This document shows positions 16,215 to 61,780 of a stretch of 64,000 nt of DNA, piece after piece. A program made the position numbers and the translations under genes. Within the stretch, counting starts at the first letter, position 1. Each line of letters starts with the position of its first letter. This DNA is from Clostridia bacterium. Lineage in GTDB: Bacteria > Bacillota > Clostridia > Christensenellales > Borkfalkiaceae. The notes below the pieces were generated by a model that worked only from the letters and a program-made list of their open reading frames with translations, did no database searches and had not been told where the DNA came from. The DNA is taken from positions 5,088 through 69,087 of the forward strand of contig JAFXHR010000020.1 in the NCBI GenBank assembly GCA_017536305.1, given 5' to 3'.

Positions 16215-16291
<77 letters not shown>

Positions 16292-31406: not shown

Positions 31407-31597
31407 AAAACGACGTATCTACGTCGCATTTCGGCGTTGCCTTTCAGTTACGTGCTATTGCACGCGCCTTCAAGGCTCCTTGAACTGCTCGTATCTCCGT
31501 CGTTTTACCAGCATTAGTGTAATGTCATTGCGAACGAGTGTAACGAGTGTGGCAATCTCGTATAAATAATTCCGCAACGAATTGCAAAGCAATTCAC
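31407..31597 (+). repeat. Mosaic palindromic intergenic element, copy 1 (modules H-B1-C-mini D)
   Basis: H is CGACGTA-TC-TACGTCG at 31411-31426. B1 has hairpins CGTGC-TATT-GCACG and TTCAAGG-CT-CCTTGAA and ends CTCGTATCTCCGTCG+TTTTACCAG. C is GTCATTGCGA..(AACGAGTGT x2)..GTGGCAATC. It closes with GAATTGC-AAA-GCAATTC. Confidence 0.85.
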
Positions 31598-31648
31598 TTA
31601 CAACAAAAACAAAAAAATTTTTTATATATACTTTGGAGGTATAAAATT

Positions 31649-31950: not shown

Positions 31951-32093
31951 AAACGACGTATATACGTCGCAATACAGCGTTGTCGCTCGCTTACGTACTA
32001 TCGGTACGCGCGCTCGCGACGCCTTGTCTTGCTCGTATCTACGCCGTTTTACCAAGATTGTCATTGCGAACGAGCAACGCGAGTGTGGCAATC
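31951..32093 (+). repeat. Mosaic palindromic intergenic element, copy 2 (modules H-B2-C)
   Basis: H is CGACGTA-TA-TACGTCG from 31954. B2 is ATACAGCGTTGTCGCTCGCTTACGTACTATCGGTACGCGCGCTCGCGACGCCTTGTCTTG plus CTCGTATCTACGCCGTTTTACCA. C ends GTGGCAATC at 32093. Confidence 0.85.
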
Positions 32094-32125
32094 TTATTTC
32101 AAACATTCCTTAGGGAGAACAAGCC

Positions 32126-36110: not shown

Positions 36111-36364
36111 AAACGACGTATTTACGTCGCATTTCTTCGTCGCCTTTCAGTTACGTACTATCGGTACGCGCCTTCAAGGCTCCTTGAACTGCTTGTATCT
36201 ACGCCGTTTTACCAGCGTTAGCGTAATGTCATTGCGAGGAGCGTAGCGACGTGGCAATCGCATATAAATTTTACCGCAACGAATTGCGTAGAAATTCATT
36301 TCACGCGCGTAGCGCAATTCACGACGACAGTCAATTCACGGCACAAGCCCAACGGGCATTTCAC
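36111..36364 (+). repeat. Mosaic palindromic intergenic element, copy 3 (modules H-B1-C-D)
   Basis: H is CGACGTA-TT-TACGTCG from 36114, and B1 and C match copy 1. D is GAATT-GCGTAGA-AATTC, ATTTCAC, gcgcgtagcgc, AATTCAC (36316), gacgacagtc, AATTCAC (36333), ggcacaagcccaacgggc, ATTTCAC (36358). Confidence 0.85.
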
Positions 36365-38627: not shown

Positions 38628-39251
38628 ATGAAAGTATTACTTGTCAACGGCAGTCCGCACGAAAAGGGCTGTATCTACACCGCGCTTTTGGAAGTGTCGA
38701 AAACCTTAAACGAGCAGGGTATCGAAACGGAAATTTACCAGCTCGGCAAAGAACCGATTGCAGGCTGTTTGGGCTGTGGCGCGTGTGCAAAGCTTGGTAA
38801 ATGCGTGACGGAAGATAAGGTATCGGAATTTATCGAAAAAGCGAAAACGGCGGACGGTTTTATTTTCGGCTCGCCCGTATATTACGCGTCGCCGGCAGGC
38901 TCGCTTATCTGTTTTATGAACCGCGTATTTTACAGCGGTGGCAAATACCTTGCCTATAAACCGGCGTCGGCGGTGGTAAGTAGCCGTCGTGCAGGTTCGA
39001 CGACCACCTTTGACGCGCTCAATAAATATTTCACCATTAATAATATGCCGATAGTACCGTCCAACTACTGGAACGAAGTACACGGCGCGAACGGTAAAGG
39101 CGACGACGTTTTACGCGACGAAGAAGGTTTACAAACCATGCGCCTTATCGGGAACAATATGGCGTGGCTTTTACAATGCCTTGCCCTTGGCAAAGAAAAG
39201 GGTATTGCGCCTAAGACTGAGCTTAAAATCCGCACCAACTTCATTTCATAA
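38628..39251 (+). CDS. Flavodoxin-fold NAD(P)H-dependent FMN reductase / iron-sulfur flavoprotein-like
   Basis: MKVLLVNGSPHEKGC... (FMN_red-type N-terminus) and a Cys cluster CLGCGACAKLGKC. Confidence 0.7.
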   Translation: MKVLLVNGSPHEKGCIYTALLEVSKTLNEQGIETEIYQLGKEPIAGCLGCGACAKLGKCVTEDKVSEFIEKAKTADGFIFGSPVYYASPAGSLICFMNRVFYSGGKYLAYKPASAVVSSRRAGSTTTFDALNKYFTINNMPIVPSNYWNEVHGANGKGDDVLRDEEGLQTMRLIGNNMAWLLQCLALGKEKGIAPKTELKIRTNFIS

Positions 39252-39510
39252 AAACGACGTATCTACGTCGCAATACAGCTAAAAAAGTGAATTGCAAGCG
39301 TTGCTTGCGTGAATTTTCGCTATGCTCAATGAATTGCGTGGCAAAGCCACGCGTGAATTGCAACGCAAAGCGTTGCGTTATTGTATTATTTCCACAACGC
39401 CACCAAAGGTGGCAATTCATGAAAAACACAGTTTTTCAATTCACGCGTACAAAGTACGCAATTCACGACGGCAAAGCCGTCATTCACGGCATAAGCCCTA
39501 TCGTGGCAAC
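39252..39510 (+). repeat. Mosaic palindromic intergenic element, copy 4 (modules H-D, full dyad array)
   Basis: H is CGACGTA-TC-TACGTCG at 39255-39270. GTGAATT at 39287, 39309 and 39353 (GAATT at 39331). AATTCAT at 39414, AATTCAC at 39438 and 39460, ATTCAC at 39482. Each interval holds a different perfect 6-7-bp hairpin, mostly with AAA loops. Confidence 0.9.
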
Positions 39511-39518
39511 AACATAAC

Positions 39519-39555
39519 AAACCGCCCTTTGCCGTTATGGCAAAGGGCGGTTTTA
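39519..39555. terminator. Bidirectional rho-independent terminator
   Basis: AAACCGCCCTTTGCC-GTTA-TGGCAAAGGGCGGTTTT between the flavoprotein/repeat and the convergent ytxH-like gene. Confidence 0.85.
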
Positions 39556-48031: not shown

Positions 48032-48260
48032 ACGACGTATCTACGTCGCAATACAGCGTTGTCGCTCGCTTACGTACTAACGGTACGCGCGCTCGCGACG
48101 CCTTGTCTTGCTCGTATCTCCGCCGTTTTACCAGCTATATCGGTACGCACGCGCCTTCAAGGCTCCTTGAACTGCTCGTATCTCCGCCGTTTTGCCAGTA
48201 TTTCGGTAAAATTGTATCTTGCTTTGTTTTTATCGCTCGGCTCCAAGTTTATAAATAACC
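48031..48260 (+). repeat. Mosaic palindromic intergenic element, copy 5 (modules H-B2-partial B1-tail)
   Basis: H is CGACGTA-TC-TACGTCG from 48033, 1 nt after the relA stop. B2 matches copy 2, followed by a partial B1. The 15-mer CTCGTATCTCCGCCG occurs at 48111-48125 and 48175-48189. Confidence 0.85.
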
Positions 48261-61567: not shown

Positions 61568-61780
61568 GAAACGCGTATATACGTCGCAAAAAAATGAATT
61601 GCAAGCAAAGCTTGCGTGAATTTTCGTGCATACTCAATGAATTGCGTGGCAAAGCCACGCGTGAAATGCAACGCAAAGCGTTGCGTTGTGGAATATTACA
61701 ACAACGCCACCGTAGGTGGCAATTCATGCCCAGCGGGCAATTCACGCGCGTAGCGCAATTCACGACGACAGTCAATTCAC
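61568..61780 (+). repeat. Mosaic palindromic intergenic element, copy 6 (degenerate H plus full dyad D array)
   Basis: ACGCGTATATACGTCGC head. ATGAATT at 61594, GTGAATT at 61616, GAATT at 61639, GTGAAAT at 61661. AATTCAT at 61721 and AATTCAC at 61739, 61757 and 61774. Cassettes are gcccagcgggc, gcgcgtagcgc and gacgacagtc. Confidence 0.9.

Follow-up and report, generated by a model that had tools for sequence, protein, structure and literature searches.

Repeats of the repetitive extragenic palindrome (REP) type have been studied almost entirely in Proteobacteria. They are defined by a GT[AG]G or CGTC tag lying 0-2 nucleotides (nt) from the foot of a hairpin and by a basal stem of 7-20 nt (PMC6006769, PMC3733652). 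Among DNA mini-hairpins, d(GCGNAGC) and d(GCGNNAGC) have a melting temperature of ~71-76 C, compared with 39 C for r(GCGAAAGC), and natural mini-hairpins are found at single-stranded DNA initiation sites, namely the phage G4 origin, RSF1010 ssiA, and the phage N4 promoters (PMC13037366). We analyzed 64,000 nt of a Clostridia bacterium of the Borkfalkiaceae (assembly GCA_017536305.1, contig JAFXHR010000020.1, positions 5,088 to 69,087), hereafter the window. We focused on an intergenic array at 39287-39488, here called array A, in which small hairpins of differing sequence alternate with a 7-nt tag that reads GTGAATT in the left half and AATTCAC in the right. Array A is one copy of an apparently undescribed repeat family found in a clade of uncultured gut and rumen Clostridia. 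[quoted passage not shown]

Tagged mini-hairpins in array A and its relatives

Array A follows a flavoprotein gene (38628-39251, 207 amino acids, flavin mononucleotide (FMN)-reductase type by Pfam scan) that ends in TAA. The features of the locus are as follows:

39255-39270, + strand: head palindrome cgacgta-tc-tacgtcg, beginning 3 nt past the flavoprotein stop; a separate repeat module of the window species
39287-39376, + strand: left half of array A, four units, tag first and then cassette
Tag GTGAATT at 39287, + strand: left unit 1, gcaagc-gtt-gcttgc
Tag GTGAATT at 39309, + strand: left unit 2, 13-nt non-palindromic cassette ttcgctatgctca
Tag ATGAATT at 39329, + strand: left unit 3, gcgtggc-aaa-gccacgc
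Tag GTGAATT at 39353, + strand: left unit 4, gcaacgc-aaa-gcgttgc
39377-39398, no strand: centre gttattgtattatttccacaac, AT-rich, a decayed version of the family central palindrome GTTGTGGAAAT/ATTTCCACAAC
39399-39487, + strand: right half of array A, four units, hairpin first and then tag
Tag AATTCAT at 39414, + strand: right unit 1, gccacc-aaa-ggtggc
Tag AATTCAC at 39438, + strand: right unit 2, gaaaaac-aca-gtttttc
Tag AATTCAC at 39460, + strand: right unit 3, gcgtac-aaa-gtacgc
Tag (c)ATTCAC at 39482, + strand: right unit 4, gacggc-aaa-gccgtc
39488-39512, + strand: ggcataagccctatcgtggcaacaa, a probable decayed terminal unit, read by eye and weak
39519-39553, no strand: strong predicted intrinsic-terminator hairpin, unique in the window and outside the repeat

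The region 39287-39488 contains seven perfect hairpins (stem of at least 6 base pairs (bp), loop of 3-5 nt) in 202 nt, compared with a mean of 0.34 and a maximum of 3 in dinucleotide shuffles of the same region (n = 2000) and with 0.32 per 202 nt over the whole window. The fold z-scores against shuffles were -8.8 for RNA of the + strand, -9.7 for RNA of the - strand, and -5.7 for DNA. The array of different perfect hairpins punctuated by heptamers, which an earlier note had described from the sequence, is therefore real, and the comparison with composition-matched shuffles that it had suggested places hairpins and z-scores far beyond chance. All but one of the eight cassettes form a perfect 6-7-bp stem with a 3-nt loop; the exception, ttcgctatgctca, for which the description of every cassette as such a stem fails, is kept in related elements as TTCGCTnnCGCTCA. 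The gap between the second and third tags, given earlier as 15 nt, is this 13-nt cassette followed directly by ATGAATT. The right-half spacings are 24, 22, and 22 nt, so the proposed 22-nt period is not strict, and the AT-rich centre proved in addition to be a decayed copy of the family palindrome. The cassettes differ from one another within array A, as had been said, but the same stems recur in a second window copy (copy C, below) and at locus L111. The outer two right-half units of array A are unlike those in copy C and L111, and ggcataagccctatcgtggcaacaa was likened, by eye and weakly, to ggcacaagcccaacgggc ATTTCAC at the end of another window copy (copy B) and to ggcattgccc... at the ends of L111 and L034.

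In two metagenome contigs of the same species as the window, array A is identical. No promoter was predicted in its centre. Two open reading frames (ORFs) inside the array (39287-39517, +, 76 amino acids; 39241-39429, -, 62 amino acids) are almost certainly spurious, and elsewhere the arrays show up as 'QFT..IH'-rich peptides where called ORFs begin. The array region has no Rfam family, either at gathering thresholds for the window or at E up to 10 for the region; the sole Rfam match in the 64-kb window is a tRNA gene at 16215-16288. In the literature on tagged palindromes, mini-hairpins, and these heptamers, we found no description of such arrays.

To define the family beyond the window, we scanned two collections, species-representative genomes and metagenome contigs, and examined 120 loci from each among the matches listed. 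Both scans required perfect tags. The genome pattern consisted of three spaced tags, and the stricter metagenome pattern also fixed G and C at the cassette ends. The genome scan returned mostly chance matches and pure heptamer microsatellites in Bacteroidota. Its clear homologues, among the matches listed, lie in metagenome-assembled genomes (MAGs) of Clostridia: Ca. Scatosoma (7 loci) and Clostridiales SIG403/SIG406, together with Clostridia RGIG4006/4180/5244, an uncultured Clostridia bin (3 loci), and Christensenella sp. UBA3217. Metagenome contigs, most without an assigned taxon, add at least 76 arrays, and the de-duplicated set comprises at least 105 runs at no fewer than 73 loci, with 350 or more units. 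We scanned 2.9 million viral contigs and obtained six matches, all unrelated tandem repeats, with no true member among them; a BLAST search of array A against plasmid and phage collections gave no match.

A family unit spans 16-27 nt: the mini-palindrome, G-N(1-6)-C [loop] G-N'-C, is perfect, and the tag AATTCAC (AWTTCAY) follows it without a gap. A perfect stem of at least 3 bp is present in 301/350 units (86%), with 101 distinct stems among the matches listed. Stem lengths in 199 unique cassettes were 3 bp in 31, 4 bp in 31, 5 bp in 56, 6 bp in 58, 7 bp in 20, and 8 bp in 3. Units run head to tail with a tag-to-tag spacing of 16-27 bp across the family, and in many cases a short AT-rich palindrome has an opposed run on either side, so that a dyad results. 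We distinguished three layouts: an 'outward' dyad of the array A type (20 half-runs counted); an 'inward' dyad, in which hairpin-AATTCAC runs are followed by a ~42-nt AT-rich centre and GTGAATT-hairpin runs (8 half-runs counted); and one-sided runs of up to 13 tags and 12 hairpin units among the matches listed.

Pure (GTGAATT)n/(ATGAATT)n microsatellites were recovered at L015, L030, L037, L051, L052, L064, L084, L100, L101, L105, L110, and L112. They are mostly from Bacteroidota (L037 is labelled Bacillota), and several form dyads of the kind (GTGAATTg)n ... (cAATTCAC)n. They surfaced through a scan targeted at the heptamer, so their number implies no enrichment over other heptamers. A class with 10-nt spacing proved to be an artefact of these microsatellites and was discarded. 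We also noted a second tag family, ATGAAAT/ATTTCAT, whose hairpins have C as their first and G as their last letter, such as ATGAAAT cgcttcgcg ATGAAAT (L144 6687-6813, L196 5974-6175, L203 5033-5100, and L210 4712-4779). At L144, L196, and L210 it lies on the same contig as an AATTCAC array, suggesting several coexisting tag-and-hairpin systems.

Dispersal and unit turnover

The elements are multi-copy and intergenic; their borders are sharp, their flanks are unrelated, and the orthologous sites of relatives lack them. Within the window, heptamer clusters at two sites besides array A bring the total to three copies in 64 kb:

61594-61780, + strand: copy C, between asnS and plsX, with head palindrome and left-half stems as in array A
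36298-36364, + strand: copy B, partial, between htrA and the following gene, with hairpin-AATTCAC units only

In copy B the hairpin units are joined to other repeat modules. The right-half units of copy C (gccc-agc-gggc, gcgc-gta-gcgc, and gac-gaca-gtc) differ from those of array A, and the block gcgcgtagcgc AATTCAC gacgacagtc AATTCAC is common to copies B and C. Outside the window, array A shares 84% identity over 223 nt with L111, from a sheep-colon MAG, where the flanks and the neighbouring gene are unrelated and the element is inverted relative to its upstream gene. Four metagenome loci have in common an inward-dyad element of ~210-230 bp, 78-89% identical, and nothing else, and one MAG carries a ~290-bp element in three copies on three contigs with sharp common borders. 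In an uncultured Clostridia MAG (L004, 600-655 and 850-895), two long hairpins resembling terminators close the element, gaagagggtgttc..gaacaccctc with a run of T after it and aggggatgttaagaaa..tttcttaacatcccc, with pairing kept by compensatory changes between copies; L057 and L033 end likewise. The earlier note had considered that the pattern might be the end of a known mobile element. It does belong to a dispersed mobile-type repeat, and we found no description of that repeat.

The array is missing at the orthologous flavoprotein locus of six related contigs (L250-L253, L255, and L256; 76-81% protein identity), where a ~70-nt spacer with a plain terminator, or other sequence, is found. Similarly, the spacer from htrA to the next gene is 10 nt in two relatives compared with 286 nt in the window. 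In L254, with a flavoprotein gene 97% identical, the contig ends 26 nt past the stop, inside a variant head sequence, aaacgcgtatagcacgcc, as expected if repeats interrupt assembly. The L255 contig (79% identical) ends 27 nt past the stop with only terminator-like sequence, and this break is not clearly repeat-related.

All arrays are intergenic and often span the entire gap between two genes, among the matches listed. From simple longest-ORF calls, the neighbouring genes were co-directional in 36 cases, convergent in 20, and divergent in 6. The same context skew has been reported for REPs (PMC3733652). In array A, the predicted terminator at 39519-39553 lies between the flavoprotein gene and a convergent 75-amino-acid gene and is common to both, which places the array between the flavoprotein stop codon and the terminator. 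At the fetched array loci we found no recurrent neighbouring gene and no gene flanked by opposed runs; the orientation of a conserved TTCGCT cassette relative to genes gave no pattern, in too few cases.

To determine which parts of the element are constrained, we counted differences between copies from the parsed units:

Array A against L111: stems 1/66, tags 2/56, loops 8/15, centre 5/22
Array A against copy C: stems 0/52, tags 3/56, loops 5/12

Divergence between copies is thus 42-53% in loops compared with 0-2% in stems and 4% in tags. With stems and tags changing little and loops changing much, we conclude that paired positions and tags are kept and that loops are nearly free. Across the family, 231 stems are perfect and 24 have one mismatch, so that 90% are perfect Watson-Crick stems. 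The one-mismatch stems contain G·T in 9 cases and A·C in 7, indicating that wobble pairs are not favoured.

The gain, loss, and shuffling of cassettes predicted by the earlier note are borne out by unit-exact insertions and deletions and by the same units standing in different orders. L033 has exactly 21 nt fewer than two sister copies, equal to one 14-nt hairpin plus one 7-nt tag, and L144 has one additional unit, gcgcgaagcgc AATTCAC, compared with L124. In one locus group, six or seven units occur in varied order (a-b-e-f-a, f-b-e-a, a-b-c-d-a, a-a-f-b, c-e-a-c-a-b-e, and others). For either dyad type, copies retain one half and exchange the units of the other one at a time. With these results, we conclude that arrays change by whole units and that units are shuffled between arrays.

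The flip of the heptamer at the centre of array A is as originally described, but the structural dyad that was to follow from pairing of left with right tags is not conserved. ATGAATT does not stand opposite AATTCAT, L031 pairs GTGAATT with ATTTCAC, and the two halves often differ in unit number. A ladder of four-way junctions built on tag-tag pairing was rejected on the same grounds, since tags do not covary and halves differ in unit number.

Other repeat modules are mixed with the hairpin units in the window. The head palindrome AAACGACGTATnTACGTCGCA has six + strand copies (31410-31427, 31953-31970, 36113-36130, 39254-39271, 48032-48049, and 61573-61587), each 0-16 nt past the stop codon of a + strand gene, and the repeat modules that come after it vary from copy to copy; the related genomes that were fetched lack it. 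PMC12306157 reports an effect on translation termination for E. coli REPs no more than 15 nt from the stop codon. Further structured intergenic modules, among them caatacagcgttgtcgctcgcttacgtact..ccgttttaccag, atttc..gcctttcagttacgt..ccttcaaggctccttgaactgct.., and gtcattgcga..N..tggcaatc, lie at 31428-31600, 31971-32100, 36131-36297, and 48050-48200 and form a mosaic with head and hairpin units. A motif related to the window modules, gtcattctgaacgaagtgaagaatctc, occurs inside an array in L069. A Pfam scan of 10 genes around copies A, B, and C identified an HtrA-like protease, MutY, FMN reductase, RuvX, AsnS, and PlsX, with four genes lacking a family. Genes near the three arrays (34.6-42.3 kb and 60.2-62.9 kb) are almost all on the + strand, and GC skew and AT skew are positive nearly window-wide, consistent with one replichore arm.

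Loop polarity and the level at which the hairpins act

We counted loops with every unit normalised to the order hairpin and then AWTTCAY; the search patterns had left the loops free. Triloops outnumbered tetraloops (197 vs 109) and included GAA (54), GCA (32), GTA (18), AAA (18), and GGA (6), with GTAA (25), GCAA (15), GTCA (15), and GTTA (11) among the tetraloops. The closing pair was C-G in 296/346 units, and 326/346 cassettes started with G and ended with C, a figure inflated by the metagenome pattern, which demanded G and C there. In the de-duplicated set, the loop read G..A in 171/301 hairpins and T..C in 5 (p = 3e-44), and the difference appeared in both independent scans (20 vs 1 and 147 vs 4). 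GNYA, and not GNRA, is the form of roughly half the G..A tetraloops. In one-sided runs, the polar strand was the sense strand in 14 cases and the antisense strand in 12. Loop polarity is therefore strong relative to the tag and independent of the direction of transcription.

On the hairpin-then-AATTCAC strand, the C(GNA)G and C(GNNA)G loops are those of the exceptionally stable DNA mini-hairpin motif. The family carries this motif, but array A itself, with loops AAA, ACA, and GTT and no G..A loop, does not, and it may be a variant, relaxed or decaying copy. The predominance of triloops, the non-GNRA half of the G..A tetraloops, the lack of G·U enrichment, and a polarity unlinked to the sense strand together argue for folding at the DNA level over folding at the RNA level.

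In array A, both halves do have A-rich loops on the + strand, as had been noticed at the outset, but the selection on a + strand transcript proposed to explain them is unsupported, because A-rich loops are confined to this lineage and polarity follows the tag (171 vs 5) and not transcription (14 vs 12). Copies A and C inherit one left half, so they are not independent observations of A-rich loops. Left-half loops outside the window were A in 7 cases and T in 11, and A-rich loops as a subfamily rule were abandoned since the rule fails outside the window species. The + strand AT skew of +0.1 to +0.2 is too weak alone to explain the preference for c-AAA-g.

We propose that what matters is the folded form of the hairpins, either in single-stranded DNA or in extruded cruciforms. 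A putative enzyme acting in trans, encoded elsewhere in the genome and resembling HUH/RAYT (REP-associated tyrosine transposase) or IS200-type proteins in its action, would recognise the structure plus the tag and spread the elements, which would be selfish repeats. Units could change in number and order through slippage at the 7-nt tags, through recombination there, or through their own excision and insertion, and transcription of array A within a 3' untranslated region (UTR) would be a by-product of its location and not the reason for its existence.

Several observations weigh against a mobile element acting as single-stranded DNA. Neither a target-site duplication nor a classical terminal inverted repeat was seen at the element borders, although the tags and units of one array half stand inverted relative to those of the other, and long hairpins form the ends of some subfamilies. 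No cognate gene, transposase or other, was found near the window arrays, whose neighbours are housekeeping genes, and a tblastn search of 1.48 Mb of fetched loci, with IS608 TnpA and E. coli RAYT queries, gave no Y1/HUH match near arrays. The polar strand coincides with the C-rich strand in 30 cases and not in 15, at most a weak replication-strand bias. The argument from mini-hairpins holds only at the family level because array A has no G..A loop, and the sample is tilted to well-kept arrays by the perfect-tag requirement and by the limited set of matches considered. Finally, GTAA and GCAA loops also fit the GNRA tetraloops of RNA, and array A is predicted to lie inside a transcription unit.

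The last two points suit an RNA-level element, a structured 3' UTR or intercistronic part of the mRNA that blocks RNases, stabilises the upstream message, or titrates an RNA-binding protein specific for GUGAAUU/AAUUCAC between hairpins. Transcribed REPs are known to act in this way (PMC3733652), array A stands between stop codon and terminator with a strong RNA fold (z = -8.8), and copies B and C and many relatives fill gaps between co-directional genes. We nevertheless consider such an element rather unlikely. The polar strand is antisense nearly as often as sense in single runs, dyads put opposite polarities onto one transcript, triloops dominate and half of the G..A tetraloops are non-GNRA, wobble is not enriched (G·T 9 vs A·C 7) in stems that are 90% perfect Watson-Crick, and there is no Rfam match. 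The 3' UTR scaffold of binding hairpins put forward in the earlier note fares no better, as arrays are found in either orientation and in all kinds of intergenic setting, with stems that show no G·U enrichment; an effect on mRNA may be a by-product or side-effect. It is also distinctly doubtful that each hairpin-plus-AATTCAC unit is an independently mobile single-stranded DNA cassette moved by a structure-specific recombinase or HUH-type nuclease. Such a nuclease would cut at the tags, and the unit-exact insertions, deletions, and permutations are compatible with it, but equally so with slippage or recombination at tags. If true, these mobile 16-27-nt cassettes would form a cargo-less integron-like or IS200-like system, and no smaller mobile unit would be known from bacteria.

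No part of the unit is better conserved than the heptamer, the mean period is near two helical turns, and pure (GTGAATT)n tandem arrays, some of them dyads, occur in Bacteroidota MAGs, all of which would suit iteron-like sites on duplex DNA for a regulator, partition, or nucleoid protein with the palindromes as spacers. This is highly improbable, since a tag spacing of 16-27 bp puts the sites out of helical phase, the perfect palindromic spacers, their G...C ends, and the polar loops go unexplained, and the arrays stand at many unrelated loci without a common neighbouring gene. Resemblances of the tag or centre to parS, the DnaA box, the Rex box, and the EcoRI site were partial matches with no supporting context and were dropped. 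We give almost no credence to a guide-RNA array of the tandem interspaced guide RNA (TIGR) or clustered regularly interspaced short palindromic repeat (CRISPR) kind, with palindromes as processing signals. TIGR stem-loop palindromes are indeed variable and missed by repeat finders (PMC12045711), but here the palindromes are set apart by just a constant 7 nt, 8-12-nt spacers and a box C/D pair are lacking, neither a Nop/Tas nor a cas gene was found beside the window arrays, and the arrays are scattered over many intergenic sites with no true member on viral contigs. Equally implausible are P-nucleotide-like footprints, left when hairpin-mediated breakage and repair recur at a hot spot of recombination, an origin floated earlier and suggested by perfect short palindromes that abut constant sequence. 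Footprints should mirror the adjoining flank, but the stems are unrelated to the flanking tag, the 3-5-nt loops are non-palindromic, identical stems are inherited between copies at other loci and in other species, and whole elements are multi-copy with sharp borders.

A common uncultured group of gut and rumen Clostridia carries, in this family, an abundant repeat of another design, in which a 7-nt tag is combined with tiny stems of unconstrained sequence and with loops fitted to the mini-hairpin. If the loop signature reflects single-stranded folding in vivo, the arrays would be a natural genome-wide substrate for a new enzyme that recognises hairpin plus tag. Unit turnover is a potential fast strain-typing marker for array-bearing Clostridia MAGs, and the arrays probably break assemblies and yield spurious small ORFs (39287-39517 and the 'QFT...IH' peptides).

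Comparison with known systems

The likeness to REPs and BIMEs lies in short extragenic palindromes of high copy number with an unpaired conserved tag at the hairpin foot, in a location mainly between co-directional or convergent genes and downstream of ORFs, in mosaic clusters with inverted halves, and in being thought to act as folded single-stranded DNA (PMC3733652, PMC6006769). The definition of a REP does not fit them. The tag is a heptamer, GTGAAWT/AWTTCAY, flush with the stem, so that GTGA stands 3 nt from the foot; stems are 3-8 bp and of 101 kinds instead of 7-20 paired nt with one consensus per family; and units follow one another directly head to tail, as many as 12 hairpin units in a run among the matches listed, instead of alternating pairs. 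REPs and BIMEs usually flank a RAYT (TnpA-REP) gene, and none was found near arrays in the 1.48 Mb of fetched loci. The elements resemble MITEs in being small and non-coding, with near-identical copies, unrelated flanks, and empty orthologous sites. The BrickBuilt MITE of P. gingivalis is likewise small, non-coding, strictly intergenic, and multi-copy, with a tandem body of ~22-23-nt period and variable unit number between a leader and a tail (PMC4596501). It differs in having one conserved 23-nt unit and no palindrome-plus-tag, opposed-run dyad, or polar loops. Pneumococcal BOX elements (boxA-boxB(n)-boxC) are also modular intergenic repeats of Firmicutes with variable internal units and strong predicted structure, but their boxB is a conserved 45-nt sequence and they have no short tag, variable mini-palindromes, or DNA mini-hairpin loops.

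A constant short tag with variable, hairpin-constrained cassettes thus sets the family apart from both CRISPR and canonical REPs, as the earlier note had held. CRISPR arrays have a repeat of ~25-36 nt or more and unique non-palindromic spacers, usually beside cas genes, whereas here the conserved part is 7 nt and the 9-20-nt palindromes recur. TIGR arrays share tandem palindromes that vary in sequence and are constant in structure (PMC12045711), but they carry two 8-12-nt spacers with box C/D per unit, where our arrays have the constant 7 nt only. TIGR arrays also adjoin tas genes and are common on phages, and there was no Nop-domain product among the 10 genes at copies A, B, and C. Integron attC sites and the ends of IS200/IS605 insertion sequences are similar in being folded single-stranded hairpins recognised by structure plus a short core, which gives strand polarity. 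Integron cassettes excise, insert, and reorder, whereas recombination of the arrays is suggested only by unit insertions, deletions, and permutations; attC sites have paired R''/R' 7-bp cores, ORF cassettes, and intI close by, and the arrays have heptamers outside the stems, in direct orientation, with no ORFs or cargo. The genes beside the window copies include neither an integrase nor a TnpA gene. Natural cases of the mini-hairpin motif are single, at origins or promoters, in contrast to the dispersed arrays described here and to the AAA/ACA loops of array A. Taken together, REPs and BIMEs are the closest known systems in logic, and BrickBuilt is the closest in architecture.

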